In this document: positions 16,209 to 37,365 of the stretch, one piece after another
Numbering within the stretch: position 1 is the stretch's first letter
Layout of the letters: each line of letters begins with the position of its first letter
Source of the DNA: an uncultured Gammaproteobacteria bacterium
Lineage (GTDB): Bacteria > Patescibacteriota > Patescibacteriia > Magasanikbacterales > GWA2-37-8
Length of the DNA stretch: 64,000 nucleotides
Direction of reading: 5' to 3'
Assembly (NCBI GenBank): GCA_964596525.1
Contig: CAZQUL010000001.1
Span: forward strand, 806,509 to 870,508
Notes under the pieces: generated by a model
The model's database searches: none
The model's input: the letters and a program-made list of their open reading frames with translations, nothing else
Told to the model about the DNA's origin: nothing
Translations under genes and position numbers: made by a program

Positions 16209-17111
16209 ATGACCAAGCCCTCGAAGACCCCCGTGAAGCCCGGTAAGACCTCGACCAAGTCCCCGGCTGGCAAGGCCCCCGTGGCCAAGCCCGCCGCCAA
16301 GCCGAGCAAGAAGCCTGCGAAGCCGGTCACCGATGACGATGGCGAAGAGACCGTCTCCAAGGGTACCCTGACCACCGTGCTCAGCGGCATCGCGAACCTG
16401 CTCAAGAAGAAGCCGCAGGACATGGAGCCGGTCGAGCTGCTCGAGGCCTTCTGCGACAAGGCGACCCGCACCCGTGGCCTCGTCGACTGCGCCCGCGCCA
16501 TCTTCGGCGACTCCCCCTGCATCGTCATCAACCGCAACGGCCTGCCCAACAAGAGCAAGACGCTCGCGCGCTACAACGAGGAGAGCAAGCGGCGCGTGTA
16601 CGGCGGGCTCGAGGTCGTCTCGATCGAAGTCGCCCTCGGCAAGATCACCACCCGTAGTCCCTACGACTACCGGATGGAGCTCGACAACGAGGGCATCGAC
16701 GAGGACGGCATCGCCATGCCGGAGAGTTCCGAGGTGCGCGTGTTCATCCGGTTCATGGTCAACCAGCGGATGATGGGCCTCTCCGACGGACAGGTCGACC
16801 CCCAGCGCCGTGACGCCGTGAACCAGGCGGTCGAGAACTACCCCGAGGTGCCCCGCTCCTACGAGCAGGCCAAGATCCTGTTCGAGGGTGCCCGCGATCG
16901 CAACACGCCCGAGTACCGCAAGGCGGTCGAGGATCTCACGGCCGTCACCACGCAGTTCAGCGGCAGCTCGCAGTCCGGCCACGGCCACAACACCGGCTAC
17001 GGCTTCTCGAACACGGGCTACGGCCAGAACGGTGGCTACGCCGGCGACCGCCCGCTCGGCCAGTACAGCGACGGCCCGCGCAGCCCGCGCCGCGACTTCG
17101 GTCGCGACTAG
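16209..17111 (+). CDS. high-GC hypothetical protein with Lys/Ala/Pro-rich N-terminal tail and Gly/Tyr-rich C-terminus
   Basis: ATG preceded by AAGGAG. N-terminus KPSKTPVKPGKTSTKSPAGKAPVAKPAAKPSKKPAKP, C-terminus GHGHNTGYGFSNTGYGQNGGYAGD. GC at third codon positions is near saturation. The ORF-track start at 16119 lies in AT-rich leader DNA and was rejected. Confidence 0.7.
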   Translation: MTKPSKTPVKPGKTSTKSPAGKAPVAKPAAKPSKKPAKPVTDDDGEETVSKGTLTTVLSGIANLLKKKPQDMEPVELLEAFCDKATRTRGLVDCARAIFGDSPCIVINRNGLPNKSKTLARYNEESKRRVYGGLEVVSIEVALGKITTRSPYDYRMELDNEGIDEDGIAMPESSEVRVFIRFMVNQRMMGLSDGQVDPQRRDAVNQAVENYPEVPRSYEQAKILFEGARDRNTPEYRKAVEDLTAVTTQFSGSSQSGHGHNTGYGFSNTGYGQNGGYAGDRPLGQYSDGPRSPRRDFGRD

Positions 17112-17403
17112 AGGCTTCCGGCCTCGCGCGTCGGCGCCGTAACCTTGAGTAGGCGCTAGAGCCGTCCTGTCCAAGGTTTCTCCCTCGTACCTTCCCTCCC
17201 TTCATTCCTCCTGCAGAGATCGTCGCTCCGGTTCCCGGTTGCGGCGGCTCTCTGCCTTTCCCCCAAGAGCTTATGAAGCTCATGAGCACTTGGGTAGAAA
17301 GTTCAATCGTTTTTCTACTACATTGTTCGTTGCCAATCAGTGCTTTTCGCGAAGCTTTTTTTGTTTACGCCGCTTCCACCAACCTGAACGAAAGGAGACG
17401 TCG

Positions 17404-18408
17404 ATGTCCTTCCAGCCCCCGAACCAGCCGCGTGCCTTCGTCTGCCCCGCGCCCCGGAGCGTCGACAACCGCATCTTCGCCCCCGTCATCAAAGCCAATG
17501 GCCTCCTCATGGCCGTGGCCTACCAGCGTGACGGCGAAGCACCCACGCTCGTCAACCTGTTCCGTGAGCCTGGGCGCGACGACGGCCGCATCCTCGTGCC
17601 GCTCCCGCCCGAGGGGGTGAACGTCAGCCTGCTCATCTTCAACCCCACCTCGAGTGCCATCGGCATCCTCGGTGCGGTCGAAGGCGTGTCGATCGTCAAC
17701 CCGAAGCAGGGCGTGTTCGAGCCCACGACCGCCTCCTGCCTGGTCATCAACCCGGGCATGGAAGGCGAAATCGCGGGCTACGTGAACGTCGCGGCGAACG
17801 GCGTGGCAGCGCTCGCGCGATGGAGGCTCCAGCCGGTCGGCTATGGCACCACGGTCGGCGAAGCCACGAAGAAGACCACGGATCTGCGCGGTCAGTGCGA
17901 CCTGTATGTCCGTACCGCCTACCGGGACTTCATGCGCCAGCCCATGGACGACGGCTATATGCGGGATATCGCCTCATCATCCGGCAACCTCGGGTACGAT
18001 CCGGGGCTCGTCGCGGCGCGTCCCTCGCGTCGTGCGGAGGACCTGGATGAGCCGAACTGGGACCATGACAAGCTGCGCAGCCCCAGCAAGGGTACGCGCA
18101 ACGCTCCGGATCGGGGTGGTACCGTACAGGTCGGCATCGGCACCGACGTCACGCAGGAGATTGAGGATCTCCAGCCGGTCTCGTTCTGCCTCGGCGAGAC
18201 AAGCCCGCTCTGCCAGCTCTGGATCGTGGCGCGCTCCGAAGTGCTGCGAAGTTGCATCGAAGGACATCTGGGCCACCGGGCCTGGAACTGGGAGTGTACT
18301 TCCGAGCTGGCCTGGCAGCACCTGAACTCGCTCACCCCGCCGCCTGCCCCGGTCGTCCCCGGCGTGCCCACTGCCCTGAAGGGCTGGGGGTCTGCGCGCC
18401 AGCCCTAG
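17404..18408 (+). CDS. high-GC hypothetical protein (334 aa)
   Basis: ATG preceded by AAAGGAGACG. The composition switches to GC-rich exactly at the start codon. No recognised motif. Confidence 0.65.
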   Translation: MSFQPPNQPRAFVCPAPRSVDNRIFAPVIKANGLLMAVAYQRDGEAPTLVNLFREPGRDDGRILVPLPPEGVNVSLLIFNPTSSAIGILGAVEGVSIVNPKQGVFEPTTASCLVINPGMEGEIAGYVNVAANGVAALARWRLQPVGYGTTVGEATKKTTDLRGQCDLYVRTAYRDFMRQPMDDGYMRDIASSSGNLGYDPGLVAARPSRRAEDLDEPNWDHDKLRSPSKGTRNAPDRGGTVQVGIGTDVTQEIEDLQPVSFCLGETSPLCQLWIVARSEVLRSCIEGHLGHRAWNWECTSELAWQHLNSLTPPPAPVVPGVPTALKGWGSARQP

Positions 18409-18432
18409 CGCGAATCTGAGGCGCGCGCTTTG

Positions 18433-18468
18433 AGCGCCGTTATCCTGTAAAGGAAGCGGCGCTTTTTT
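18433..18468 (+). terminator. candidate rho-independent terminator
   Basis: Stem AGCGCCG/CGGCGCT with a 17-nt loop followed by TTTTTT. Confidence 0.4.
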
Positions 18469-18637
18469 GATAGTAAAGATGATGCAAAAACATTGACTTT
18501 TTTATATATGTACGCTATTCTACGCCGTTAAACTTTCCACCTAGGAATATACTTCGTATTTCTTGGCGGTACGTTTACCGACCCGTTTTTAACGGGATCT
18601 TTCTCTGACAACACAACGCATACGAAGGAGGATTACG

Positions 18638-19921
18638 ATGGCGACCCAGACAGTTCTTGATCCGACCGCTTATCTCGGTTTTGCTAACGGTCTGCCGCTC
18701 TTTCGCGAGCACCGCCAGGCGCTCATCGCCGCGATTGGAGGTCTGGCACACCAGTTTTTGCTTTCGCCCGATGAAGAGCGATCGACGGTAAGAGAGTTGG
18801 TACCGGAAGGTGCCTGGTATCAGCATGTGCCCCGCGATCCGCGTCATGTCGACGATCTCTTGATCAACAAAGTCGGCAACAGGGTGGCGCGGGCGATGAT
18901 TGGCGAGCTACTTGCTCGCTTCAACGCGCTCACTACCGTGTGTCCGCTCGGGCATCTGGGTGTTGGTATCGACAATGGCTCCTGGACAGTGCGCGCCACC
19001 GGAGAGCGTTGCCTCGTGCCCACCTGCCGAGAGACCATCTTGTGGGAGCCTCCGCCGGTTTCGCACTACGACTGGGTCGACGACTGTCTGGTTTCCCTGG
19101 TGGTCCGCGATCGGGTGATTGGCGGGTGCAACGTGCCGATCCATATCGAAAATATCGAGCGGCTCGTCAACAGCATGGGCGGATTGCGTCCTGAGGTTGA
19201 ACAGGTGCTCTCAATTGCGACGCTCCAGAACCGGGGGCTTACCCTTAAGAAGCTTCTCGGTCAGCTGTGGCGTACGCACGCGGTGCGCTATGGCCATCAG
19301 CCGCTCAAGGTTCTCTGGTCGTTCACCCGGCATAATCCCGAATCAGTGGCATATGTGGTGGACGAGCTCAAGAGCGCGGCGTTTGCGGCTGTAACACGCC
19401 AGGCGTCGAGTGGTCCGCCGCCCGCTCCTACATCAGTAGCTCCGCGCAAGAAGCGCGAGAAGCTCTCGGTGGTGGCTATTGCCGCGGCTGACGAAGGCAT
19501 CGATCTGTGGATTCTCCAAGACGTGGCCAAAAGCTTAAAGACCCTCAAGGACTACTCAAGAATTACCGTGTGGACTACGGCGAACTGCACCTTTCCTCAC
19601 CTTATGGCAGAGTGCCTCCCGCCGCAGCTCCAGAACGCCGATGTTGTCTTGCTCTTTTTGAGCGATCGGTTCTTTAAGAGTCCCTGCGGTAAAGAAGCGG
19701 AGCGAGTTCTCCACGGCTTCTGCGACGGACTTTTCCCGTTCCGTATCTACTTGGTGAAGATAAACACCTACTCTTCGGAGTTGGCGTATAACTTGCCAGC
19801 GTTGGTGGATAGCAAGGGCTCGCGGCCGAGTGATGTCGATACGATTGTCCGCACTGCCGCTCTCAAGCTCGCCACCATTATTCCGGCCCACCTCGAGATC
19901 TTTGATCGCGAAAACGCCTAG
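18638..19921 (+). CDS. hypothetical protein with C-terminal TIR-like domain
   Basis: RBS GAAGGAGG. The C-terminal 150 aa read KLSVVAIAAADEG...DVVLLFLSDRFFKSPCGKEAERVL...FRIYLVKINTYSSELAYNLP. This matches the TIR beta-A/alpha-C pattern (S-x-x-[YF]-x-x-S-x-W/C-C-x-x-E). The N-terminal 270 aa are unknown and Cys-rich. GC is about 58-60%. Confidence 0.6.
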   Translation: MATQTVLDPTAYLGFANGLPLFREHRQALIAAIGGLAHQFLLSPDEERSTVRELVPEGAWYQHVPRDPRHVDDLLINKVGNRVARAMIGELLARFNALTTVCPLGHLGVGIDNGSWTVRATGERCLVPTCRETILWEPPPVSHYDWVDDCLVSLVVRDRVIGGCNVPIHIENIERLVNSMGGLRPEVEQVLSIATLQNRGLTLKKLLGQLWRTHAVRYGHQPLKVLWSFTRHNPESVAYVVDELKSAAFAAVTRQASSGPPPAPTSVAPRKKREKLSVVAIAAADEGIDLWILQDVAKSLKTLKDYSRITVWTTANCTFPHLMAECLPPQLQNADVVLLFLSDRFFKSPCGKEAERVLHGFCDGLFPFRIYLVKINTYSSELAYNLPALVDSKGSRPSDVDTIVRTAALKLATIIPAHLEIFDRENA

Positions 19922-20041
19922 CTCTATACCCCCACAAGCAGCTTCCCAAAGCTGCTTTTGCATGTGTGCAAAGTTATACACAGAGTAAACTCTCGGACAA
20001 AGTGTTGTGATGTGGTATACTCTCTACATCACAAGGAGCAA

Positions 20042-20062
20042 GGAGGGGCCCCTCTTTTTTGT
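20042..20062 (+). terminator. candidate terminator
   Basis: GAGGGGCCCCTC palindrome followed by TTTTTTG. It is preceded by a second hairpin, TTGTGATGT..ACATCACAA. Confidence 0.4.
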
Positions 20063-20293
20063 TTGCTTCATACTAAGTGAGGTCGTTGCGAATACGAGTT
20101 ACTTTAGGGTGACTCTCTTTATCCTCGCCTTATTTTTGGATGGCATCCGCATGCGCGGGTCGATTCTGAGCTTAAGGGGAAGATAAGCTCCTGTCAGCGA
20201 TGACGGGAACCTCTTTTCGCAATGACGTCCTTTAGTAGGAACTCACAACGGGTTTCTGCGATTTTACAATTTTTACGACATAAGGAGGGGGAG

Positions 20294-20347
20294 ATGTGCT
20301 TGTTGTTTCTTTATGTCATCATCAAGGTGGGAGACCTTCCTTTTTAG
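20294..20347 (+). CDS. 17-codon leader-like mini-ORF (MCLLFLYVIIKVGDLPF)
   Basis: The window's strongest RBS (TAAGGAGGGGGAG) sits 3-4 nt upstream of its ATG. It overlaps the annotated start of the next ORF in another frame. Confidence 0.25.
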   Translation: MCLLFLYVIIKVGDLPF

Positions 20348-21128
20348 TTTTAGCTCATTGGTAAAGGCGGTGCGGCGAAAAAGCCAGACGTCATCGTTTT
20401 CGCGTCGGGCTTTTTTTCTTGCGCTGCTTTTTTTTGGTGAACTTTTATTGGTTGTCATAGCGTTGCCGCTTATCGTGTTCCGGTCAAAAGCAGCTTTGCC
20501 GCGTGAGGTGGAGCGTTTTTACCGGGCACATCGACAAGCTATGCTTCTGCTTATCGTTCCGCTTCTTAGTATCGGAGTCGTTAAAATTGGTCTTGTGGCG
20601 TATGCTTGGACCTCGCCGGACGACCGTACGGTAAACATTACCGTGCAGTCTGATGAAGTAATTAAACCCTCGATACTAGCTCGTTTTCCGTCTACGGCCA
20701 CGGGTACGCTGCCGCCGCCAGTGGTTGCTGGTATGGCAATGGTGGCGGGTAATACATCGTGGTTTGGGACAGCTGCGCCGGGTGCAGGCGTGGTGGTAGT
20801 TCTTGAACCGGTCGGTGCGCCAGGTGCTGCACGTTGGCTTTTTGCCACTACGTCAAAGGACGGTTCGTGGCAGATTGTGCCTGAAGAACGGGTAGCACGG
20901 CTCGACTCCGGTTCGTATCTCGTTACCGCAACGGCTTTTAATCCGCTCACCCTCAACAAAAGCGCGTCATCGGGAGCCCGGCTTTTTGTGGTTGAGCCGC
21001 GTTTACGAGAAATGCTCCTCCGCCATGCCGATACTGCGGCGAATTGGGCGGTAGCTATCCTGGGCGCGGTCACGTATCTTTTTGTCATCGTTACTTACTC
21101 CGCATCGTATGGAAGAAAAACGCGTTAA
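20313..21128 (+). CDS. membrane protein (hypothetical). The start is uncertain.
   Basis: N-terminal TM helix AFFLALLFFGELLLVVIALPLIVF, C-terminal TM helix WAVAILGAVTYLFVIVTY, and a central Ala/Gly/Pro-rich domain. Confidence 0.5.
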   Translation: MSSSRWETFLFSFSSLVKAVRRKSQTSSFSRRAFFLALLFFGELLLVVIALPLIVFRSKAALPREVERFYRAHRQAMLLLIVPLLSIGVVKIGLVAYAWTSPDDRTVNITVQSDEVIKPSILARFPSTATGTLPPPVVAGMAMVAGNTSWFGTAAPGAGVVVVLEPVGAPGAARWLFATTSKDGSWQIVPEERVARLDSGSYLVTATAFNPLTLNKSASSGARLFVVEPRLREMLLRHADTAANWAVAILGAVTYLFVIVTYSASYGRKTR

Positions 21129-24100
21129 GAAGAACGTTTCTGTCCGAAAAACGGCTGGATCGGTAAAAAAGCTGCAGCTGACTAAAAAAACCATTGTCCG
21201 TCGGGCGCAAAAATCATTGCCTGTCTCCGTTCGCCCAACGTCGTCAAGACCAGATTTTAGCTTAGAAAAACTACTTTCTTTTATTCCTCGCATCGAAGCG
21301 CGGCGTTTGCCTTTGTTCGTTCTGCGTCTTGGCAATTTTTTGGCGCAACGCGCCCGTCGATCAGCTGTTTTGGCGCTTGGTCTTATTGCTCTTTCCGTTG
21401 TGCCGATGGCCTGGTCGTGGGCCGTTGCAGATCAGAATGAGAGCGCTCCGTTAGAGTATATTAATTGGACGTTTGCTCCTGAAAAAACGGTAGCTTACCG
21501 TTACGATCCAAGCCGAATTCAGATCGTTGATGGCGTGGCTATTTTGAAAGCAATCCCGCGTGAAGAAATGCCGCGTCCCGAAGAACCTGTTGCGAATGGT
21601 GAAGCTCCTCTTCTCGTACCGACGAGTATGACGGATGAGCCTGATGAGCAGCCTGGTGCAGGTGAAAATACTCCTTCTTCTACCAATGAAACAACTACAC
21701 CGTCGACGCCAGCACCTCCTTTTTCAGAAGAGTCCGATGTAACTACTACTGCGAAGCGTACACCCTGGTGGAGGAGTCTGGTTGGGCGAGTTATTGCTGC
21801 CGAAGATGAGAGTATAGTGTCGCCTTGTTACGCTGAAATCGAAGCGCTTGAACCGCAAACTCTGCCCGCGCGAACAGAGCTTGCGGCGTTTGAAGCGATT
21901 ACGGTAACGGGAGGCGGACGCGTGGATTTTCAACTTTCTCGCGATGGTGGGGCAACATGGCGAGCGTTTTCTGATGATGAATGGGTCGCGTCGTCGACAC
22001 TTTTTTCTTCAGCTGAAACGATTAATCGGCATCTCGATAAGTTCGGGTCAGCGGAAACTATTTTGTTCCGTGCCCGTTTGATGAGTGCGTGTGAGGAACC
22101 GGTTGGTCTGGTGCGCGTGAGTGTCGGCTATGCCAAAGAACGAATTCCGGAAAAATCTGTTTCTGCACCTGCGCTCGAGGTTGCTATTTCCACATCTTCG
22201 TTTGAAGTGGTGAAAGCGAATCATTCGGCGGAGCGTAGCGCTGAAGAAGGACAGTATCTTACCGTCGATCGTTTTCCGCTTGCGTATCTTGAAGGCGCGA
22301 GTACGACCTGGGCGGTTTTTCCGTGGCATGAAGTTGTAGCGGGGCACACATCTACAACCAGTTGGTTGCATTTGGGGGGAGCGTCACGTGATGGTTTGGC
22401 AACCGTGCAGCTTATCGTGCCGCGGCGCAGGGCGGATGCCGGTGTACGGGTATGCCCGGGTGCCCAGAATGCGAATGAAGTGTACCGTGGCTGCCCAAAC
22501 GAACATATTCTTACGCTTGAGGAACCCACATCTTCGCCGTATTATTTGACCGCTTTGGAAGATCTTGATCGTTGGCATATTGAAGCGCCGGCAGCCGTAT
22601 TTTCCACGGGAGCGGAGCCGATCATAGACGCGCTTGTCGCTGAATGGGCGATGGACGATAGCGACGTGTGCCGGATCGTAGACACGTTTGGTCGTGCGAC
22701 CGGTACCATAAGCGGCAGTTGTTCTTTAGCACCCGGCCGTATTGAAGGAAAATTTGGCACCGCGCGTCTGGCAAGTTCAACCAGCTCGCCTTTCGTGATT
22801 CCGTTTGTTGCCCCGGCGGCTACTACGTCGTGGACGTTTAGTACCTGGGTTTACCCTGCCACGTCAACCGCGCTACGCGTGCTCGCTGAGCAGGCGGATC
22901 AGTTCCGTTGGTTTGCCGACCCGGACAATCGTTTGCTGTTTGACTATCGAGATAGTACGACCGGCCAGTGGCAACGTCTAACTCCGAGCAATGCCTTGCT
23001 GAACAGTTCGTGGCAACAGGTTGCCGTATCTGCGGGAGAAGAGGGGGTTGCGCTCTATCAAAACGGCACGCAGGTTGCTTTTGCGTCGTCTACTGCGCAG
23101 TTTTTGTCTGCCTCTTTTTTCTTAGGAGCTGCGGCAACGAGTTCGGAAGCAGGGTGGGTAGGTGGAATTGATACGTTCCGCTGGTATAATTATCCGTTTA
23201 CTCTTGAGCGTGCGGCCGAAGAATATGTCCGCGGCAGCAACCATGCGCCGGAGCTACGCCTTGATGCGCCCGTGTTTAACGCAGCTTCTGGCACAGTTTC
23301 GTTTCCCTATACGTTATTCGATTACGATGCCGATGTCGTACGCTTGCCGCGCGTGGAGTATTCAGCCACCGGAGCGTTTATCGGCGAAGAGCGGCCAGCG
23401 ACACCAGCGGTTGCCGATTCTGCGCATAGCGGTACGGTGAATCTGCCGGCGCGGCGTGATGGTGTGCGTGGGACGTTTGTCTGGGATCTGCGTACTGATG
23501 TTGGCGATGCCGTGCACGAGGACATGGCAATGCGCATTGTCCCGGCCGATAGTTTCGGCGAAGGTAGTGCAACATCCACCCATACCGGACGTCTGGCTGT
23601 GTGGAGCGTGGATGGTGAGCCGGTGGTGGGGGGTAGTCATCGGTGTACGCCGCAAACACCCCGTTGTTCTACGCTTGGTCAGGCTTTGTCCCAAGCGCGC
23701 GACTATGACACGGTCCGCGTTGCGACCGGTACGTATCCAGAACAGATTACGATTGAACGGCCGCTTTCTTTTATTGGCCAGGGGAATCCGCGTATCGATA
23801 CGGTGAAACTTGTCAAAAACGGTCGTGTGGTGCGATCACGCGGCGTAGTGGCAGAGCGTATACAGCTTGATAAAGCGAGTGGTGACGTACGTATCGCCGA
23901 CGCGCTTCTAATCGCTGCCCCGGGTGCAGAGATTGTTTTGTCCGCCGGAACCTATAAAGAAGACACGCAGCTTGCTATCCGTCAGTCAGTTTCCATCAAG
24001 GGTACCAGCCAAAGTTCTACTGTCATCGTCAGTCCCCGTACGATCGGTACCCAGTTTGCTGATTTATCACTTATCGATATTGCTGGCACTAACGATATGG

Positions 24101-25968: not shown

Positions 25969-26006
25969 CCTTCTCGCCCGTCGGGCCTTGTTCTAAACAA
26001 TCACGT

Positions 26007-27055: not shown

Positions 27056-27087
27056 AAAATACTCCGCTAAACGGAGTATTTTTATTG
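27056..27087. terminator. bidirectional terminator between convergent genes
   Basis: AAAAATACTCCG-ctaaa-CGGAGTATTTTTATT. Confidence 0.7.
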
Positions 27088-27097
27088 TGGGAAATTC

Positions 27098-27784: not shown

Positions 27785-27832
27785 ACGGAATCGTGATACA
27801 ACCAAGAATAATAACCTTAGTTTACCTTACGT

Positions 27833-28252
27833 ATGGCTAAAAGCAAACTGACTATTCTTATCGTTGCGGCGGTGCTTATCGTCGTTTTTGGCGTATTCCT
27901 TGGCTACCGCATCAAAGAAGCCCTGCAGACCCCGCATCTTATTGTGGCTCATACCGAGTATCCCTTGGCGCGCGATATGTGGCACCTTAATGGACAGCCT
28001 TTGGCGGTAGGCAAGGGGATTTGTTTCTGGCAGGTTGGTAAGCGCGGTGAGATCAAGCTCGAGCGCACCGACGGTCAAATCGCGACTGCTACATTTTCTA
28101 ATACTTTAAGCATCTCTGCTCCGTTTCCGTTCGTGCAATTTTCTATCGAAACCACCCCGGGTTTTTTTGGTGGGTTAAAGGTACTTGAAATTCCCACGAC
28201 CTCCCCGATGGTGAAGGAATTCTCCTGTCCGTCCGAAGTAAAATCCTTATAA
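27833..28252 (+). CDS. membrane-anchored hypothetical protein
   Basis: N-terminal TM helix LTILIVAAVLIVVFGVFLGY. Confidence 0.5.
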   Translation: MAKSKLTILIVAAVLIVVFGVFLGYRIKEALQTPHLIVAHTEYPLARDMWHLNGQPLAVGKGICFWQVGKRGEIKLERTDGQIATATFSNTLSISAPFPFVQFSIETTPGFFGGLKVLEIPTTSPMVKEFSCPSEVKSL

Positions 28253-28305
28253 AATTGAAGACCGCCCCGAGTCTTCGGAGCGGTGCAGAAGTAGTTGTCT
28301 GTTCT

Positions 28306-28725
28306 TTAGCGGGCGAAGAGGCTGGCAAGTGCCGTCACCGTAACCGTGTAGATCGACGGTTCGGTGGGGCGCTGTTGAAGGGGGCGAAACGGACGGCAGC
28401 GGCGGTTGCGCGCAATGAGCTGGGCGGCCAGTTCGTCTGTCGATCCGCTGCTTGGCGCTGTTGCGGCAGGTGCTGTGTCAGACGATGGTTCGAGGGTTGG
28501 TGCGGATGTTCCACCGCACGGCACGCACTGGGTTCCGTCCCAGCACGTCCCGGGACCGCAAGCACTGCTGCGGGCCTCGCACGTATTGTTTCCAGGATTC
28601 ACCACGGTCCCGGTGCCGCAAGCCGCCGGTCCGCAACCGCCCAGGGTAATGAAAGTACTGTTAAGCAAAAAAACCCCTACCGCAGCAAGCGGTAGTGAGG
28701 AAATTGGTTTCATCCGGCTCTTCAT
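28306..28725 (-). CDS. Cys-rich secreted/lipoprotein-like protein. It looks chimeric: a native signal peptide joined to a high-GC mature domain.
   Basis: RBS AAGGAGG. The signal MKPISSLPLAAVGVFLLNSTFITLGGC is encoded in AT-rich DNA. The mature part (10 Cys, Gly/Pro/Thr-rich) has GC3 near 90%. The plus-strand ORF 28255..28695 is a GC-rich shadow. Confidence 0.55.
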   Translation of the reverse strand: MKSRMKPISSLPLAAVGVFLLNSTFITLGGCGPAACGTGTVVNPGNNTCEARSSACGPGTCWDGTQCVPCGGTSAPTLEPSSDTAPAATAPSSGSTDELAAQLIARNRRCRPFRPLQQRPTEPSIYTVTVTALASLFAR

Positions 28726-28946: not shown

Positions 28947-31850
28947 ATGTCTTTTTTCTCCAAATTATTTGGTGATCCTAATGCTAAAGTAATTGCCGGC
29001 ATCCAGCCGATTGTGGAACGCATTAATGCCCTTGAACCTGCTCTCAAAGAATTGACCGCTGAGCAGCTTAAGGCTAAAACCCCGGAATTCAAAGAGCGCT
29101 TGGCTAAAGGGGAAACGCTTGATGATATTTTACCCGAAGCTTTCGCGGTCGTGCGCGAGATGTCGCGCCGCCTTACCGGCATGCGCCACTTCGATGTGCA
29201 GCTCATGGGTGGTATTGTGCTGCATCGCGGTAATATTGCCGAAATGCATACCGGTGAAGGTAAGACGCTTACTGCTACGCTCCCGGTGTATCTCAACGCA
29301 CTCAGTGGTAAGGGCGTGCACGTGGTTACGGTCAACGACTATCTCGCTAAGCGTGATGCCGTGTGGATGGGCCAGATTTACGATGCACTCGGCCTTTCAG
29401 TTGGTATCATCCAGAACCAAATGGTTTCATATCGCTATAGCGCGCACGCAAGAAAAACTGATGAAACAGCTCCGGCTCTGGAAGTAAAACAGGTAGAAGA
29501 AACATCCAACACAGCGCAAAAATCCTTCAGTGAATTGGCCGAAGGTTCTCCTGCCGACAAAGAACGCGACGCCAAAGGTTCCTACAAAGTAGAATACGAC
29601 TTTTTGGAATCATGCACGCGTCAGGAAGCGCACCGCTCCGACATCGTTTACGGCACGAACAACGAATTCGGTTTCGATTATCTGCGCGATAATATGTCCC
29701 AGTCGACCGGCGAGCAGGTTTTGCATGCCCTCAACTTCGCCATCGTCGATGAAGTCGATTCCATCCTTATCGACGAGGCGCGCACGCCGCTCATCATTTC
29801 CGCGCCTATGGAAGAGGCGACCGAGCGCTATTACCGCTTTGCCGAGCTTGTCGAACGCCTCGAAGAAAATACTGATTACAATATCGATGAAAAAATGCGC
29901 GCGGCAACGCTTTCCGAAAACGGTATTAAGAAAATGGAAGAGTGGCTTGGTATCTCGAATATTTATGCTGAAGGCGGCGTGGCGACCGTACACCACGTGG
30001 AACAAGCGCTTCGTGCCAAGGCGCTCTTTAAGCGTGACCGTGATTACGTCATCGAAAACGGCGAAGTGCTCATCGTTGACGAATTTACGGGTCGCAAGAT
30101 GCCGGGCCGTCGCTATAGCGAAGGTCTGCACCAGGCCATCGAAGCTAAAGAGAAAGTTAAAATCCAGCGCGAAAGCCAGACCATGGCCACCGTTACGTTC
30201 CAGAATTTTTTCCGCATGTACGCCAAGCTTTCTGGTATGACCGGTACGGCCGTCACTGAAGCGGAGGAATTCGGCAAAATCTACAAACTCGAAGTAGTGG
30301 TTATTCCGGCTAACAAAGGTAAGCGTCGCGTGGATCATCCCGACCGTATCTACCGTACGCAGCACGCCAAGTTTAAAGCTATTGCCATGCGCGTCAAAGA
30401 GCTTCAGGCCAAGGGCCAGCCGGTTCTTATTGGTACGGTTTCAGTTGTCAAGAACGAGCTCCTTGCGCAGTATCTCGAGCAAGAAGGGGTTAAATTCGAA
30501 GTGCTCAATGCTAAGAACCACGAACGTGAAGGTGAAATCGTGGCCCAGGCCGGTCGGCCGGGTGCGGTGACGCTCGCCACCAACATGGCAGGCCGCGGCG
30601 TCGATATCATTTTGGGCGGAAACCCGGCAATTCCGGCTGATGCCGAGAAAGTCCGTAGCCTTGGCGGTTTGTTTGTTATCGGCACCGAGCGCCATGAGTC
30701 GCGCCGTATCGATAATCAGCTGCGCGGCCGTTCCGGCCGTCAGGGCGATCCGGGTGAAACGCAGTTCTATCTTTCAACTGAAGACGATTTAATGCGTATC
30801 TTTGCCGGTGATCGTATCAAAGCCGTAATGGAAGCACTCAAAGTGCCCGATGACATGCCGATCGAACAACGTTCGCTCACCCGTATCATCGAAAGCGCGC
30901 AGAAGAAAGTGGAAGGCTTCCACTTTGATACCCGCAAACACCTTTTGGAATACGATGACGTGCTCAATCGTCACCGTGAAGTGATTTACGGCAACCGCCG
31001 CAAAGTGCTGGCAAGCTATGACCGCGAACGAGCTGTCCTTACCGCCGGCGCCCCGGCCCTTACCGCCGAAGAAAAAACGCTCCGCGCTATGATTTTCGAT
31101 TACGTCGAGCGCGAGGTTGAGCAGGTCGTTGCGGTGCACACGAGCGCCGAAGAAGGGGAGACATGGAACATGAAAGAGATCACTGAAACCGTGGCGACCA
31201 TCTTTCCGCTCTCGACCGAAGAGCGCGAGGCTATCACGGCGTTCTCTACACGTCCTGAAGCGAAGCTCCATGCGGCTGAACTGCGCACCAAACTCATCGA
31301 GCACATACTCACACTCGCTCGTGCCAAATATGACGAGCTCATCATCCGCCCGTTCCAGCACCCAGAACTCATCCTTGAAATCGAAAAGCAGATCATGCTC
31401 CGCTCTATCGATAACCTGTGGGTTGAGCACCTCGTAGCGGTCGATTATTTGCGCACCGGTATCGGACTACGCGGGTATGGCCAGCGTGATCCGCTCGTCG
31501 AATACAAGAAAGAAACCTACCGCATGTTCAACGAGCTCTTGAGCCTTATTCAAAAAGAAGTGGTGTATACCATCTTTAAAGTCGGTATCGGCATGACACT
31601 CGCTCCGAGTGTTGTTGCTGAAGCTCAAAAAGACTACCAGGCTGCCGACGCTTCGACGGCAGGAGTTGCTCCTCACGATCACAACCACGACCATAATCAT
31701 GCCCATGACGGCCACGATCATGCGCATGGACATCCGCACGCTCATGCAGCGCCAGCTTCTAAAAATCAGAATCCGCCCAAAGAAATGAATCGCAACGATC
31801 TCTGTTACTGTGGTTCGGGCAAGAAGTTTAAGAAATGCCATGGTGCCTAA
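28947..31850 (+). CDS. secA: preprotein translocase ATPase SecA
   Basis: 967 aa. DEAD-motor motifs, C-terminal zinc finger CYCGSGKKFKKCHG, plus a His-rich tract. Confidence 0.95.
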   Translation: MSFFSKLFGDPNAKVIAGIQPIVERINALEPALKELTAEQLKAKTPEFKERLAKGETLDDILPEAFAVVREMSRRLTGMRHFDVQLMGGIVLHRGNIAEMHTGEGKTLTATLPVYLNALSGKGVHVVTVNDYLAKRDAVWMGQIYDALGLSVGIIQNQMVSYRYSAHARKTDETAPALEVKQVEETSNTAQKSFSELAEGSPADKERDAKGSYKVEYDFLESCTRQEAHRSDIVYGTNNEFGFDYLRDNMSQSTGEQVLHALNFAIVDEVDSILIDEARTPLIISAPMEEATERYYRFAELVERLEENTDYNIDEKMRAATLSENGIKKMEEWLGISNIYAEGGVATVHHVEQALRAKALFKRDRDYVIENGEVLIVDEFTGRKMPGRRYSEGLHQAIEAKEKVKIQRESQTMATVTFQNFFRMYAKLSGMTGTAVTEAEEFGKIYKLEVVVIPANKGKRRVDHPDRIYRTQHAKFKAIAMRVKELQAKGQPVLIGTVSVVKNELLAQYLEQEGVKFEVLNAKNHEREGEIVAQAGRPGAVTLATNMAGRGVDIILGGNPAIPADAEKVRSLGGLFVIGTERHESRRIDNQLRGRSGRQGDPGETQFYLSTEDDLMRIFAGDRIKAVMEALKVPDDMPIEQRSLTRIIESAQKKVEGFHFDTRKHLLEYDDVLNRHREVIYGNRRKVLASYDRERAVLTAGAPALTAEEKTLRAMIFDYVEREVEQVVAVHTSAEEGETWNMKEITETVATIFPLSTEEREAITAFSTRPEAKLHAAELRTKLIEHILTLARAKYDELIIRPFQHPELILEIEKQIMLRSIDNLWVEHLVAVDYLRTGIGLRGYGQRDPLVEYKKETYRMFNELLSLIQKEVVYTIFKVGIGMTLAPSVVAEAQKDYQAADASTAGVAPHDHNHDHNHAHDGHDHAHGHPHAHAAPASKNQNPPKEMNRNDLCYCGSGKKFKKCHGA

Positions 31851-31856
31851 ATTATT

Positions 31857-31889
31857 AAAAAGGAACTTTACAACAGAGTTCCTTTTTAA
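31857..31889 (+). terminator. rho-independent terminator after secA
   Basis: AAAAAGGAACT-ttacaacag-AGTTCCTTTTTAA. Confidence 0.7.
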
Positions 31890-31900
31890 TTGACGAATCT

Positions 31901-32239
31901 ATGCCTGGCATTACCGATACCAATAAAATCGACCTTATCGCCCGCACTAAAGATGGACGTGCTGAGCTGGTAATCGTCGAAGAACATCCGTGGACCGGAA
32001 CCGAAGAGCGCCTCAAGATGTTTCTCGAAAAAATTAAAACGTATGTTGCGTACGCTCTCGGCGATCAGTTCAAGGAGATGTACCCGGATCTCGCTCAAAA
32101 AATCGTGACTATCAAGATTATGATGTTTCATGAGTTTGATCCAATTACCAAGAAATTGTTTGATGCCCTATCCGAGGATATCAACAAAAAATACCAGATC
32201 GTGATCGAATCAAAGATAATGGACATAAACAAAACCTAG
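31901..32239 (+). CDS. hypothetical protein (112 aa)
   Basis: Clean ORF between secA and the next gene. No motif recognised. Confidence 0.5.
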   Translation: MPGITDTNKIDLIARTKDGRAELVIVEEHPWTGTEERLKMFLEKIKTYVAYALGDQFKEMYPDLAQKIVTIKIMMFHEFDPITKKLFDALSEDINKKYQIVIESKIMDINKT

Positions 32240-32317
32240 CCTTCGATATCATGCGGAGTCTGAAAAATTTTCTCGTATCGTGTCTGCTGAATTTACTTTG
32301 CTCTTAGCCAGCTTTAT

Positions 32318-34528
32318 ATGCGTGAAAGCATGCGCTTAGATCCTTCTGCGATCGGTAGGACTGATAACGCACGGCTGCCATCTCGTGAGCTTGGTGAGAT
32401 TTCCTCTGCGCCCAAACAAGAGAATGTTCTCAAAAACGAAGCAGCGCGCATGTTTGAACATGCCGATATGTATCGTTTGCCCGGGGATTCTTCGCTCACT
32501 GAAAAAGATTTTAAACGTTACTTTGAAAGTAATGCGCGGTTTGAGGAGCAGCTTTCGGAAATGTTGGTTGCGGGATTAGAAAATTCGGAAACACACGAAG
32601 CACTTTCAGCTTTCCGCATGCTTGTCCAAAAGGATTTTTTGGCTGAATATCCGGCGGTGCTTTCGTTCGTTAACCGTATGATCGAGTCTGGCGACTATGG
32701 TGCACAGCGCTTGATCCTCGATTATATTCCTGTACTCAAGCCCGAAGATAGGGGAAGGTACATTGATGAGATTTTTGAAAAAGGAAATATCGAATTACAA
32801 GAAAAGGCAGCTTCGTTTCTCAAATTTATTCCGCCTAATGAGGGTGAGAGGTTGCGTCGGAAATTAGGTCAAATCCTATGGAACTACTTGACGGAAAATC
32901 CAGCGCTCTACGAGTCACACGGTTTTCCTTTCGAGATAATAGACAATGTTCCTGAAGGCGATCGGAATAAAGCACAAGAGTATATCGCCAACTTAATCAA
33001 AGAAGCGCTCCGAGCGCCGTCATTATCGGATCGTCGGGGGTATGCATATCTCACCTGCGTGCTTCCTTCTGATATGCAGAAAAAATTCATAAACCAATAT
33101 TTTTCCGACAAGAATACCAAGCTCACCTCGTATTTTTTGCGCGAGATGGGGTATCGGAAAGAGCGAGTTGACCCTGCTTTTTTTACCGGCTTACCAGAGG
33201 TTATTGAGCGCGGACTTAACGGAGAAAATGATGATTTTGCCGAGTCCCTTTCCGATTTGATCCCCCAAGCGCCGGTCGCTAACCGAGGGCGGCTTGTCGA
33301 ACAGGCTCTTAGCTATCCGTCGCAACGAGTGCGTTCGCGCGCAGTCAGTGCCCTCCGTAGCGTCTCTTCTTCCGATCTTCCTTTGCTGGTCGATAAGTGT
33401 TTATCCTCGTCTTATAGTAAAGTGGCTTACACGGCTTTGGATCATCTCAATCGAATGGTTTCGGAAGAGAAAATTAGTCTTCAGCCGGCAGTGCGGCGCG
33501 TGGTAGAAAAAATGCTCGATTCGGACGATTATTCGGATTTTGTCGCTGGACTCGCTTCTTTTCCCCACCTTTCGCCATTCGATCAGGAATTAATGCTCGA
33601 AAAGGTTCCGAGTTTACTTGATACTTTTTTTAAAGATCCTGATATTGCTTTGCGTATTTTCAGGCATTTTCGTTTTGACGCGCTTCCGCATAATGTCTGC
33701 GCTTTGATAGACGTTCGGTTGCCGGAGCTCCTGAAAGAAGTTTTTTCTTTCCAAAACCGAGAACACTGGTCGCAAGCCTTACGGCTTATCGATCGGTTGC
33801 CGATGGTCGAAAAGGATTCGTTTTATGATCTAGCGGTAGGTACAATAAAAGAAACCTATGAATCGGGTAGTCTAAAAGACGTGGTCGCATTGCTTGGTGA
33901 ATTATCGGATGAGATGTCCTCGGCATTCGCGAAAAAACTACCTGCAATTTCGCCGGTTTTAAGCGAGTATCTCTTGAGGAAGGCCTCGCACTCTCCTTTG
34001 TATAACAAGTTTCCCGAGCCGTTCACGAAAGAGGATTTTGCTAAAGACGGTTCGACAACTACGTTACTCGATCGTATTCCAGGTCTCGACAATGTATCAC
34101 TGCGCGAACGGGTTATTATCCGACATATTGGGCCGCAATACTACGCCGTCTGGAAAAAGGCTTATGAAGCGATTGATTGCTGGAAACGGCACGGCTTTAA
34201 CTATGTTCCGGTCGAACCGATCGTCGGCGTTTCGATGCCAGCACTAAATAAGCCGGTTGATGTATACACAAGAGTGATAAACGGGCCATCGGCCGCTCTA
34301 TGGCTCGAGGACGGTGGGTTATATCAAGGCCGTATTGACCAACAGATCCATAGCATCAAGCTTGCTTTAAGTGAACTTGGTATCATCCATGGCCATGATT
34401 ACCATAAAGGCAATTTCGTCGTGTGTTTCGAACGTGATGGCGCTTCGGGTAAACCGATCCTCACCGCGCCGCCACGAGTGTATGTGATCGATTTTGATCA
34501 AGCTACGTCTATTAAAGAAAAGAAATAA
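32318..34528 (+). CDS. hypothetical protein with helical-repeat N-terminal region and C-terminal protein-kinase-like domain
   Basis: The C-terminus HGHDYHKGNFVVCF...PRVYVIDFDQATS resembles a kinase catalytic loop (HxD..N) and a DFG-like (IDFD) segment. The N-terminal 550 aa look like HEAT/ARM repeats. Confidence 0.6.
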   Translation: MRESMRLDPSAIGRTDNARLPSRELGEISSAPKQENVLKNEAARMFEHADMYRLPGDSSLTEKDFKRYFESNARFEEQLSEMLVAGLENSETHEALSAFRMLVQKDFLAEYPAVLSFVNRMIESGDYGAQRLILDYIPVLKPEDRGRYIDEIFEKGNIELQEKAASFLKFIPPNEGERLRRKLGQILWNYLTENPALYESHGFPFEIIDNVPEGDRNKAQEYIANLIKEALRAPSLSDRRGYAYLTCVLPSDMQKKFINQYFSDKNTKLTSYFLREMGYRKERVDPAFFTGLPEVIERGLNGENDDFAESLSDLIPQAPVANRGRLVEQALSYPSQRVRSRAVSALRSVSSSDLPLLVDKCLSSSYSKVAYTALDHLNRMVSEEKISLQPAVRRVVEKMLDSDDYSDFVAGLASFPHLSPFDQELMLEKVPSLLDTFFKDPDIALRIFRHFRFDALPHNVCALIDVRLPELLKEVFSFQNREHWSQALRLIDRLPMVEKDSFYDLAVGTIKETYESGSLKDVVALLGELSDEMSSAFAKKLPAISPVLSEYLLRKASHSPLYNKFPEPFTKEDFAKDGSTTTLLDRIPGLDNVSLRERVIIRHIGPQYYAVWKKAYEAIDCWKRHGFNYVPVEPIVGVSMPALNKPVDVYTRVINGPSAALWLEDGGLYQGRIDQQIHSIKLALSELGIIHGHDYHKGNFVVCFERDGASGKPILTAPPRVYVIDFDQATSIKEKK

Positions 34529-34537
34529 GAACTCGAA

Positions 34538-34861
34538 ATGCCCAAAATTACCACCTTCAAAAATGATTCCTTCAAGAAAAGCCGCGGCGGTTATTCACGT
34601 TGGTTGTCTTTAAGGTGTGAAAAATGTCAGACTCCGCTCTTGACGTATCAGAAAGACGGGCCGGGAATTCTGAAGCGGTTGTATGTGGATCGAATCGTTT
34701 TTCCGACTGATTTCGATCCAAAGAAAAATTTAGTATGCGCTGGATGCGATGTGCTTATTGGCATTCTTATCGTATACGAGAAAGAAAATCGGCCAGCGTA
34801 CCGTTTATTTGCGGAGGCGATTGAAAAGAAAATTATCAAAAGCTGTACTCTACCGAAATAA
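34538..34861 (+). CDS. zinc-ribbon hypothetical protein
   Basis: CEKC...CAGC pair (CxxC-N46-CxxC). Confidence 0.5.
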   Translation: MPKITTFKNDSFKKSRGGYSRWLSLRCEKCQTPLLTYQKDGPGILKRLYVDRIVFPTDFDPKKNLVCAGCDVLIGILIVYEKENRPAYRLFAEAIEKKIIKSCTLPK

Positions 34862-34866
34862 TTTTT

Positions 34867-35856
34867 ATGTTTACTACCAATCATCCTGATCCGCTCAAAA
34901 TTCTCTCGTCTACCCGTCCATTGGTTGAAAATGCTCGCTTCGTTACCATCAACCCGGCGGCGATTGATGAATTTTTGGCCCACCTCAAACCAAAACTCAC
35001 TGCTATCGCGGGGAGTTATGCCACTTCCCTCAAACATGGTGAAACGCTCGACGAAAGCGTGCAGCTCCTCTTTATCATGTCATCGGTCAACTTCTGTTTT
35101 TGGGCAGCGCCCCGCGAGAAGAAATGGAGTGTGGAATGGCCAGTGGGCGTGGTAAGCAAAGGCGGATTTTTCTCGCTTGTTAGCGTATTTAGACGAGCTT
35201 TGGCAACAGGAATGCCGCTCGCGGATGCAGGGTATCTTGCGACGTTACCCCTTGCGGATGCTGAGGAGTTATTTAGGGGTTATGACGGAACGAGTATTCC
35301 GCTTTTCGAGGAACGTGTCGCCAATCTGCGCGAAATCGGTCGGGTACTCGCTCTTTCGTACGAAGGAAAAGCGATGAATCTCATTGAAGAAGCCGGATTC
35401 GACGCGGTTAACCTGGCGACGCTCCTCGTCGAAGAATTTCCGTCATTCGCCGATATCGTTGCGCATGACAACGGGCGCTATATGTTTCTTAAGCGAGCTC
35501 AATTATTCGTTAATGACTTGGTGCATCTAGCCGAATTTTTTCCCGAATTTAAGCTTTTAAATACCGACCAGATCGTGACGCTCGCGGATTATCGTTTACC
35601 GCAGGTGCTCGAGCATTTCGGTCTTATTTCGTACGCGGATGATTTGATGCAGCGCTTAAAAGCGTATGACGAGCTTGCGCCAGGGAGTCGTGAAGAACTT
35701 GAAATCCGAGCGGCGACGATTTGGGCGGTTGAGCTTGTGCGTCAGCAACTCGGTGTGCCTGCTACGACGACGGTGGATACGGCCATCTGGCTTCTGGCCC
35801 AGGATTTGCGTGAGGACATGAAGCCGCATCATCGGACGCGGACAACGGCATATTAG
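34867..35856 (+). CDS. DUF2419-like protein (queuosine salvage / Qng1-like family), tentative
   Basis: SSVNFCFWAAP and the overall length and pattern are reminiscent of the DUF2419 family. I could not verify this without a search. Confidence 0.45.
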   Translation: MFTTNHPDPLKILSSTRPLVENARFVTINPAAIDEFLAHLKPKLTAIAGSYATSLKHGETLDESVQLLFIMSSVNFCFWAAPREKKWSVEWPVGVVSKGGFFSLVSVFRRALATGMPLADAGYLATLPLADAEELFRGYDGTSIPLFEERVANLREIGRVLALSYEGKAMNLIEEAGFDAVNLATLLVEEFPSFADIVAHDNGRYMFLKRAQLFVNDLVHLAEFFPEFKLLNTDQIVTLADYRLPQVLEHFGLISYADDLMQRLKAYDELAPGSREELEIRAATIWAVELVRQQLGVPATTTVDTAIWLLAQDLREDMKPHHRTRTTAY

Positions 35857-35884
35857 TTCATAACCGTTGATTTTTTAAAACATA

Positions 35885-35909
35885 AAAGGAAGTAGGTCAT
35901 ACTTCCTTT
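35885..35909. terminator. bidirectional terminator
   Basis: AAAGGAAGTA-ggtca-TACTTCCTTT between convergent genes. Confidence 0.7.
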
Positions 35910-35931
35910 GCAAAGAACGAAGGCGTGCCGG

Positions 35932-37365
35932 TCAGCGCAGCACGATGCTCATGGCGATGATCCAGAGCACGTACACGATGACGGTGCGCAGCATGAGCGG
36001 GATCGCCGCTCGCCTCCAGGCGCTTGATTCGACCTGGAGGGCTGCGCGAATCGGGAAGTTGGGAATGTTCCCGGGTGGGGTGAGCGTGCCGCCGAAGAGC
36101 GCCGCGAGCATGATGGCGATGATGATGATCGTCGCCGCCGCCATGCTCAGCTTCCCGTTCGCGATGAGCGGCACTACCAAGGCCGCGAAGACCTTGGTGA
36201 TGAGTGCATTGTCGGCGTACCCCGATGCCGGCGCTGCCACCAGAAAGAAGAGCGCGGCGACGGCCAGCGTGGGCAGGTCGAGGGGGATGAACCCTGCAGC
36301 CCAGCTCACGAAGGGCGCCCCCACGGTTCCGATCACGTCGAGAGCGGCGAGAAGGGCGGCGAGGACGATCGGCTCCCACTTGGCCTTGGTGCGGTCCTCG
36401 AGCACCTTGTGCGGCAGATTGTCGTGGCGAGGGAAGCGGCTGCGCGAGATGAAGTAGTTGGCGATGCCCGTTGCCGCATCGACGAGGGCGAGAAGGATGT
36501 TCTCGCTGATCGCGATGTGGGCGGTGATCATGATGCCGAGGTGCAGGAGGGGCAGTGCCATCTTGTCCGAGAAGCCGAAGGGCTTGAGGATCGGGTACCG
36601 AGCCTCTTCCTTCATGAGGCTGAGCGCGCCCCGACTCGTGAAGAGCACGTAGATGAAGCAGGGGAGCCCGACGAGGGCCAGATAGGTCCCCAGCCCCCAG
36701 CCAAAGCTCGTCTGGAGCACACCCCAGACGATGATGACCGGGGGTGCGACGTACGGCAGGATGCCGTTGCCGCTACCGATGACGGCAGCGAGCTTCACCG
36801 CGAGCTCCGCGCGCTTGTCGGAGCGCACGCGCTCCTCGAGATACTTGACGAGCACCACGCTCGCCGCTGGCCCCATGAGGCTGGCCATGAGGCCACCTCC
36901 GACGAGAACGAGCCATAGGCCGCCGACATACTCGAGTGCCCGCAGGATGGGCTGCGTGTGGGGGGCGGCGATGCGAGCGGCCGCGAGAATGCCGAGCAGT
37001 GCCAGGCAGTTGTACACGACGGACGCATGGATGAGGAAGTGGCCCGTCGAGATGAAGACCGCGCCAAGCGCGATCACGCCGACGGCGATGCCGGCGTACT
37101 CACCCTCATCGGTGGTCTTGTGCAGAAAACGGATGAGGGACTTGTGCTCGCGCAGCCAGGTGCGAGGGCGGCCGATGATCATGAGGTCCGCCTTGGCGAA
37201 CCCGAGCATGGCAGCGATCGCGGCCAGGAGGAGAAGTCCTCCGCTTACGACCGCGCTTCCATGCGTGAGCTGCACGGCGAGAAACGCTACGAGGCACAGA
37301 ATCCCGAGATAGCACTCGAGGATTGCCTCCTTAACTCCAACCAGTGCATTGTCCTTGTGCGACAT
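35932..37365 (-). CDS. high-GC polytopic ion-transporter-like membrane protein (477 aa)
   Basis: At least 10 predicted TM helices. Resembles the NhaD/ArsB/CitMHS-type ion transporter superfamily by topology only. RBS AGGGAGGG. GC is about 63-65% with high GC3, and the flanks are AT-rich. Confidence 0.7.
   Translation of the reverse strand: MSHKDNALVGVKEAILECYLGILCLVAFLAVQLTHGSAVVSGGLLLLAAIAAMLGFAKADLMIIGRPRTWLREHKSLIRFLHKTTDEGEYAGIAVGVIALGAVFISTGHFLIHASVVYNCLALLGILAAARIAAPHTQPILRALEYVGGLWLVLVGGGLMASLMGPAASVVLVKYLEERVRSDKRAELAVKLAAVIGSGNGILPYVAPPVIIVWGVLQTSFGWGLGTYLALVGLPCFIYVLFTSRGALSLMKEEARYPILKPFGFSDKMALPLLHLGIMITAHIAISENILLALVDAATGIANYFISRSRFPRHDNLPHKVLEDRTKAKWEPIVLAALLAALDVIGTVGAPFVSWAAGFIPLDLPTLAVAALFFLVAAPASGYADNALITKVFAALVVPLIANGKLSMAAATIIIIAIMLAALFGGTLTPPGNIPNFPIRAALQVESSAWRRAAIPLMLRTVIVYVLWIIAMSIVLR

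Follow-up and report, generated by a model that had tools for sequence, protein, structure and literature searches.

Silent-site GC enrichment in lineage-restricted genes of a Patescibacteria chromosome, and where it may have come from

In Lawrence and Ochman's model, compositionally atypical genes acquired by a chromosome are said to ameliorate toward the composition of the recipient. This report concerns genes of such atypical composition in a 64-kb chromosomal segment (the whole stretch of DNA analysed, hereafter the window) of an uncultured Patescibacteria (Candidate Phyla Radiation, CPR) bacterium, which we labelled A (16209-17111), B (17404-18408), E (18638-19921) and D (35932-37365), together with a fifth GC-rich gene, C (28306-28725), that is of a different kind. 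All four of A, B, E and D are genuine protein-coding genes, restricted to this lineage, and their silent positions are shifted wholesale to G or C. The reading we favour, to which we assign a probability of about one half, is that these GC3-rich genes (GC1, GC2 and GC3 denoting GC content at the three codon positions) came, by import or replacement, from a Patescibacteria relative of higher GC content, which would be gene transfer of a fairly ordinary sort. In a survey of groundwater Patescibacteria, other Patescibacteria were the source of 83% of the detected gene transfers (PMC12455944). The window carries pyrG, secA, an F-type atp operon, tRNA genes and glycosyltransferases, and its atpD is 76% identical to that of the closest species representative, listed as 'Patescibacteria group bacterium'.

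Composition and codon usage of the GC-rich genes

The GC content of the window is 0.519 and that of its intergenic DNA 0.444. An earlier note on this DNA had described four high-GC segments as one recurrent pattern confined to single open reading frames (ORFs), and all four are indeed at 0.65-0.67: positions 16209-17111, 17404-18408, 28306-28640 and 35932-37365 have GC contents of 0.67, 0.67, 0.66 and 0.65, respectively, and peak at 0.60-0.75 between flanks of 0.35-0.46 when 100-nucleotide (nt) windows are taken. Gene starts were chosen by Shine-Dalgarno sequence and agreement with the deposited calls (A, 16209; B, 17404; C, 28725; D, 37365), and a canonical Shine-Dalgarno sequence precedes each of the five genes. 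The recurrence holds for A, B and D, which share an excess at third codon positions. Relative to the other 52 genes of the window (mean GC3 0.560, standard deviation (sd) 0.071, maximum 0.73), the GC3 values of A, B and D, 0.94, 0.85 and 0.86 (z = 5.3, 4.0 and 4.1), are far beyond chance; the third positions of these three genes are C at 0.51-0.60, G at 0.33, A at 0.01-0.06 and T at 0.05-0.10.

A, B and D are high on both codon axes considered, C-ending two-fold codons and G-ending codons for Lys, Glu and Gln. The G-ending share is 0.96 in A, 0.78 in B, 0.76 in E and 0.94 in D, as against 0.19-0.63 in native genes. The atp operon and a gene resembling a type IV secretion system (T4SS) coupling protein reach ~0.72 for C-ending two-fold codons and only 0.30-0.36 for G-ending Lys, Glu and Gln codons; AAA and GAA account for 0.75 and 0.78 of their codon pairs in the atp operon, while AAG is at 1.00 and GAG at 0.87-0.90 in A and D. 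The codon bias of A, B, E and D is not native translational selection and, since the AAG/GAG/CAG axis is unlike that of the highly expressed atp genes, it is as expected from mutational bias in another genome. Gene E, with a GC3 of 0.68, belongs to the same codon class as an intermediate member, although it was absent from the earlier list. The T4SS-coupling-protein-like gene itself (58443-61058) is chromosomal and encodes an 871-amino-acid (aa) protein with TrwB/TraG-like coupling-protein domains; its codon usage is atp-like (C-ending 0.72, GC3 0.67).

The GC shift of the class is almost purely synonymous. The combined fractions of Gly, Ala, Arg and Pro and of Phe, Tyr, Met, Ile, Asn and Lys in A and D lie within ~1.4 sd of those of native proteins. 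Codon preference was compared as C/(C+G) in eight four-fold codon families, using GC-ending codons only, across the loci of ~70 genomes, and by this measure A, B and D taken together are closest to the native genes of the window and to those of a sister genome, L082 (r = 0.94 each), while unrelated GC-rich loci gave r = -0.13 to 0.78. Among these GC3-rich genes CTC is favoured over CTG, a preference shared by the GC-rich clade member L002. The clade itself spans a wide range of GC content, from 0.43 in L083 and 0.455 in L082 through 0.52 in the window to 0.59 in L002 (GC3 ~0.75), and the between-gene sd of GC3 is 0.08-0.095 in clade loci versus 0.02-0.06 in most other loci examined; strong gene-to-gene GC3 heterogeneity thus seems typical of the clade. 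The sister genome L082 carries a GC3-elevated orphan gene of its own (15584-16243, 0.62 versus a local 0.36-0.45), which adjoins a very AT-rich HEPN_AbiU2 defence gene (14769-15515, GC3 0.24).

Gene C is where the supposed common pattern breaks down: its GC excess stems from amino-acid composition, not from silent sites, and it is unrelated to A, B and D. C lies on the minus strand (28306-28725) and encodes a predicted lipoprotein of 139 aa, with a signal peptide, an L-G-G-C lipobox and a mature part rich in Cys, Gly, Pro, Ala and Thr; the lipobox, found in MKSRMKPISSLPLAAVGVFLLNSTFITLGGC and read from the translation without a dedicated predictor, fits the pattern [LVI][ASTVIG][GAS]C. Over the whole ORF, GC1 is 0.58, GC2 0.66 (z = 4.2) and GC3 0.63 (z = 1.0), and the mature part, read in the correct frame, has values of 0.61, 0.71 and 0.66. 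The GC content of C changes at 28647, 78 nt into the ORF, where the signal peptide gives way to the mature protein. C is GC-rich because its amino acids require GC-rich codons. Nearby, SecA (28947-31850) has a His-rich insertion, HDHNHDHNHAHDGHDHAHGHPHAHA, directly ahead of its C-terminal zinc-binding tail.

Boundaries and the A-B-E block

The earlier note had placed every boundary within a few nt of a start or stop codon. Maximum-likelihood GC change points were found 40 nt before the ATG of A, 36 nt before the ATG of B and 32 nt after the stop codon of B (18440), and those of D fall 10 nt beyond its stop codon and 34 nt into the gene from its start. In general the change points lie 3-40 nt from a start or stop codon, which bears out the claim in outline; their 2-log-likelihood support intervals of ~±30-60 nt make the resolution too coarse for single-codon sharpness, and the step in C is well inside the gene. 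Boundaries are as sharp as the data resolve at five of the six ends, and the GC excess of the class is restricted to coding sequence, as had been stated. GC looks ORF-confined largely because the excess sits almost wholly at third codon positions, which are present only inside ORFs, and because the short spacers are recipient-type regulatory DNA (promoter, leader, Shine-Dalgarno sequence and terminator). If the favoured reading holds, 'ORF-sharp' GC boundaries call for caution, as they follow naturally from a third-position excess. Beside the segments we found only short direct repeats at chance level, so that the repeats or microhomology suggested earlier for the boundaries did not materialise. 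A regular-expression scan detected no attC-like paired cores (RYYYAAC / GTTRRRY) in any flank, and the leaders matched nothing in Rfam up to E = 1 save for one chance microRNA hit.

Gene A encodes, on the plus strand, a 300-aa orphan protein whose N-terminus is rich in Lys, Pro and Ala and whose C-terminus is rich in Gly and Tyr. The spacer upstream of it (15732-16208) is native-like, with a GC content of 0.44, and contains a putative sigma-70-like promoter (15975-16003, plus strand; TTGACA-17 nt-TATAAA), read from the sequence and followed by a leader of ~200 nt, which a consensus scanner skips as it demands a T at position 6 of the -10 box. AAGGAG stands 7 nt upstream of the ATG. On the other side of the gene is a GC-rich non-coding tail (17112-17250, plus strand; 0.62-0.65 in the 100-nt profile), the sole donor-like flank, which lacks codon periodicity (GC by phase 0.64/0.61/0.70) and forms several hairpins (fold z = -3.5) with no attC layout; GC then drops to ~0.43 between ~17250 and B. 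Gene B, also on the plus strand, encodes a near-orphan protein of 334 aa, is preceded by AAAGGAG ahead of its ATG, and has GC1 and GC2 of 0.67 and 0.50. RNA folding and sequence point to an intrinsic terminator behind it, with a GC-rich hairpin and a U run (18432-18470, plus strand). The third gene, E, encodes a 427-aa orphan on the plus strand and has a predicted promoter, TTGACT-17-TATTCT, at 18493-18521.

Just 3' of pyrG, at the left edge of this block, lies a 95-nt imperfect palindrome (15788-15882, without assigned strand), which as single-stranded DNA folds at -32.5 kcal/mol (z = -7.7 versus shuffles). The 11-mer GTCATTGCGAG, which sits in this palindrome adjoining A, occurs elsewhere among the 88 loci compared only in the CPR contigs L017 and L042 and in L086, the contig carrying a homologue of B. 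The palindrome may be an element of the repetitive extragenic palindromic (REP) or miniature inverted-repeat transposable element (MITE) type typical of CPR genomes.

Neither A nor B has a homologue among 5.8 billion clustered proteins, E is the single member of its protein cluster, and none of the three genes matches Pfam, NCBIfam, PADLOC or PHROG. Scans of phages and plasmids (tblastn) and of IMG/VR were likewise negative for A and B, as was that of IMG/VR for E. An exhaustive phmmer search of 1.84 billion representatives returned one weak colinear match to B, P0012 (E = 1.7e-4, 28-29% identity), on a 2.9-kb contig (L086) of a metagenome-assembled genome that has 44% GC and is CPR-like in appearance; the GC3 of P0012 is 0.46 versus 0.39-0.40 in the adjoining genes. 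A single-sequence AlphaFold2 model of B had a predicted local distance difference test (pLDDT) score of 33, too poor for a fold search. For A, B and E, an origin from phages, plasmids or defence islands was rejected, these scans being negative throughout. An E. coli origin or engineered construct was also rejected, with no megablast match to E. coli genomes and no marker-gene families.

The part of the window from 16 to 28 kb resembles a variable region with many orphan genes. A gene at 21082-25968 encodes a protein of 1628 aa with a Laminin_G_3 (concanavalin-like) domain and a GC2 of 0.52, probably a large surface protein, and several of the genes beside it, at 20313-21128 and 26007-27038, have no family match. 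The tRNA genes nearest to the segments are at 10.3-10.5 kb and 55.2 kb.

Independent Logan assemblies of two samples agree with the window at 100% identity over 15794-28408, a stretch spanning A, B, E and their right-hand native neighbours, and one Logan contig from a single sample does so over 30719-41349, spanning D and both its junctions. Both A-B-E contigs begin at 15794, inside the palindrome, so that the junction to pyrG is supported by the NCBI assembly alone.

Gene D and its orthologues

Gene D (35932-37365, minus strand; GC 0.65) encodes a polytopic membrane protein of 477 aa that is probably a transporter. Its C-terminal third (residues 340-470) weakly matches the Pfam family PF07854 (DUF1646) at 23.8 bits against a cut-off of 21.4 (E = 3.6e-5); a PDB search gave no match, and an AlphaFold2 model from a four-sequence alignment had a pLDDT of 40, too poor for a fold search. 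GC3 is 0.67 in the first 30 codons and climbs to ~0.9 over the first 90. Convergent to D is a gene of a queuosine-salvage family (34867-35856; PF10343, E = 1.4e-64); queuosine influences the decoding of NAC/NAU codons.

Only three homologues of D were found, with 57-61% identity, all on metagenome contigs of 43-46% GC and one of them in the sister genome L082; no further relatives emerged when JGI metagenomes and IMG/VR were scanned by alignment and with the degenerate motif GGTLTPPGNIPNFP. In L082 the orthologue stands directly downstream of atpC, as D does in the window, and D was therefore already at the atpC-side site in the common ancestor. Identities between the window and L082 are 88% for atpD, 85% for atpA, 58% for atpC and 60.5% for D. 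The atpC-D spacer of the window (37366-37544, minus strand; GC 0.40) comprises the atp terminator, a promoter (TTGACA-17-TAAACT, 37474-37446), a leader of ~75-80 nt and a GGGAGG ribosome-binding site, and the 178-nt spacer of L082 has its terminator, promoter, leader and ribosome-binding site in the same order. Kept between the two spacers are the terminator arm AAAAAAACAGGC and the leader 9-mer GAACGCATC. The four D leaders (window 37366-37450, minus strand; L082 6765-6854; L083 9925-10000; L085 775-849) have a hairpin containing GATTCG at their start and an AACGC motif in common, the latter as GAACGCATC in the window and L082; RNAalifold gave no consensus structure for the four, and there was no Rfam match.

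The GC3 of D is 0.86 in the window versus 0.55-0.67 in its neighbours, 0.61 versus ~0.40 in L083, 0.62 versus 0.31 in L085 and, more mildly, 0.51 versus 0.36-0.45 in L082. D is on a long branch, with 80 unique substitutions compared with 29 for the homologue P0002, which is 68-70% identical to P0003 and P0004 and 61% to D; a long branch of this kind fits a xenologue. Furthermore, synteny breaks exactly at D in two comparisons, that of the window with L082 and that of L083 with L085. The long branch and the synteny breaks count for replacement of D, and its native-looking spacer and atpC count against it. A mosaic breakpoint inside D was rejected, since sliding identity to P0002 showed no N-terminal block of higher identity.

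Possible origins and comparison with known systems

On the favoured reading, A, B, E and D would be horizontal acquisitions, passed to this chromosome of 52% GC by another member of its Patescibacteria lineage with a higher GC content. A, B and E would probably have arrived as one block of ~3.7 kb, beside the palindromic element 3' of pyrG and in an orphan-rich variable region, and D would probably have replaced a resident copy downstream of the atp operon. Import of this kind is backed by the extreme GC3 signature that the genes share, by their clade-like codon preference and by the wide GC range of the clade; it is also backed by the occurrence of B and D homologues solely on low-GC, CPR-like contigs, by the donor-like tail of A and by the long branch of D. 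Starting from the observed composition, codon class, lack of non-CPR homologues, positional orthology of D and GC range of the clade, we infer that a transfer took place, who the donor was and how the junctions came to lie so near the ORF ends.

A number of findings weigh against this reading. Five of the six flanks are recipient-like, at 0.39-0.46 GC, as native spacers are, so that the earlier description of the flanks as native-like stands everywhere except 3' of A, where GC-rich DNA (0.62-0.65) continues for ~140 nt past the stop. The premise of that description, that a foreign fragment should bring foreign flanks, is sound: in GC-rich comparison genomes, ORF-free DNA is 5 points below coding DNA in L002 (0.54 versus 0.59) and 3 points below it in L054 (0.62 versus 0.66), and in L039 it is no lower (0.68 versus 0.67). 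A donor of 65-67% GC should therefore bring flanks of ~0.60. Transfer also needs junctions within tens of nt of ORF ends at two separate loci. The window contains no integrase and no tRNA gene flanks the segments; mobility features were not found. In the databases searched, no protein is more than 61% identical to A, B, E or D that could represent the donor.

The remaining difficulties concern D. Its surroundings look vertically inherited, and any replacement would have had to begin and end at the limits of the ORF or within them. The earlier note had looked to related genomes for an empty site, and at the D locus the site downstream of atpC is occupied by the orthologue in L082; it had also regarded high GC of the same genes in all relatives as telling against its view, and D has a higher GC3 than its neighbours in each of the four genomes where it occurs, with a shift that includes AAG and GAG each time. 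The Gly, Ala, Arg and Pro fraction of D is 0.325 versus 0.306-0.312 in its orthologues on the 43-46% GC contigs, which is little shift. One recent import fails to explain the elevation in all carriers and, because silent sites should be saturated at an atpD identity of 88%, a single ancient and partly ameliorated import cannot explain D either. What is left is either repeated replacement of D by copies from relatives richer in GC or a lasting force that acts specifically on coding sequence; in-frame replacement, which had been proposed for the pattern as a whole, is a live option for D only.

Such a force, acting in place on coding sequence alone and holding native genes at high GC3, is the more interesting alternative, and we consider it somewhat unlikely. 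It could take the form of silent-site selection for mRNA stability, for resistance to A/U-specific RNases or for a second codon 'dialect' linked to a particular tRNA state, or else of GC-biased gene conversion at recombination-prone genes adjoining variable regions. ORF-limited boundaries with untouched native spacers would follow from it by definition, and the almost purely synonymous nature of the excess, the native-like C-versus-G codon preferences, the position of D exactly at both synteny breaks and the further GC3-elevated orphan in L082 (15584-16243) are all in its favour. Its main support is D, a positional orthologue elevated in four of four carriers along the same G-ending Lys/Glu/Gln axis. 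To our knowledge there is no bacterial precedent for gene-specific silent-site selection or biased conversion amounting to +0.3 GC3, which counts against it, as does the use of AAG and GAG, codons that the highly expressed atp genes disfavour. GC3 is not raised in other membrane proteins of these loci (Na_H_Exchanger 0.42, Cation_efflux 0.37, atpB 0.37), the elevation of D in L082 is mild and no outlier there, biased conversion should spill into the flanks, and the GC-rich 3' tail of A is left without explanation. The broader proposition that a process confined to coding sequence, whether silent-site selection or precise ORF swapping, holds a small lineage-restricted gene set at very high GC3 we judge to be unlikely. 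D is the lead for such a process, being inherited in place with its promoter and leader and yet raised by 0.3 in GC3 in the window.

Patescibacteria are generally regarded as living attached to the cells of a host, a habit that counts for the model put forward in the earlier note, namely repeated transfer from a high-GC host outside the Patescibacteria (for example an actinobacterium) with only the coding sequence kept by promoter capture. The codon use is that of a GC-rich genome, the GC1 and GC2 of B would fit a genome of ~67% GC, the 3' flank of A is GC-rich, and a native-looking promoter or Shine-Dalgarno sequence stands ahead of each gene. This origin is nevertheless quite unlikely, and no host donor came to light: A has no homologue, B and D have matches only on contigs of 43-46% GC, and the collections of 5.8 billion and 1.84 billion proteins and of phages, plasmids and IMG/VR hold no non-CPR homologue. 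The D family is found only on four contigs of low to moderate GC, one of them syntenic with the window genome, and the orthology of D had by itself already weakened the model. In addition, the preference for CTC over CTG and the C/G preference as a whole resemble the native genome rather than unrelated GC-rich loci, and A and D have the amino-acid composition that a genome of ~50% GC typically encodes. For TM7x, the best-studied cultured case, the published account reported no strong sign of genes derived from a host (PMC7427843).

That the high-GC genes are an artefact of chimeric assembly, or of contaminating high-GC reads joined into the chromosome, is highly improbable, for even though the left junction of the A-B-E block to pyrG rests on the NCBI assembly only, the identical Logan contigs tie A-B-E and D to native genes, each high-GC gene is accompanied on its contig by a Shine-Dalgarno sequence and promoter of native type, and the orthologue of D is equally placed in another organism.

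If import from a GC-richer relative is correct, these genes are a further example of gene flow between Patescibacteria of differing GC content, and GC-rich orphans in reduced genomes can be imports and not contamination. If instead a force acting in place is responsible, then GC3 values of 0.85-0.94 would reflect an unusually strong gene-specific silent-site constraint in a bacterium.

Among known systems, the class resembles highly expressed genes in that its bias is ORF-limited and C-ending codons are enriched, as in the atp operon, but A, B, E and D use AAG, GAG and CAG, while atp genes prefer AAA and GAA as strongly as average genes do. As with integron gene cassettes, the mobile unit would be roughly one ORF with boundaries near its start and stop codons. 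Unlike such cassettes, the genes have no attC-like cores in their flanks and no integrase in the window, and unlike promoterless cassettes A, E and D have promoters of their own (A and D with a long leader as well) and C has its own Shine-Dalgarno sequence. D is comparable to cases of xenologous displacement in keeping its position and its terminator-promoter-leader layout while showing foreign codon usage and the longest branch of its family; it differs from them in that homologous replacement normally swaps some flank, whereas the D spacer and atpC look native, and in having no known donor allele. A, B and E are also GC-rich, unlike the usual AT-rich orphan genes of bacteria. Compared with ameliorating alien genes, the class departs from expectation in its lack of mobility genes, tRNA target and direct repeats, in the recipient-like state of all flanks but one, and in the positional orthologue of D in a sister genome and its raised GC3 in every carrier. 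It agrees with them in that the GC3 and codon usage of A, B and D set them apart from a chromosome that is homogeneous otherwise, in that A, B, E and D have accessory or orphan functions in variable regions, and in that E is intermediate, as partial amelioration or a different donor would give.

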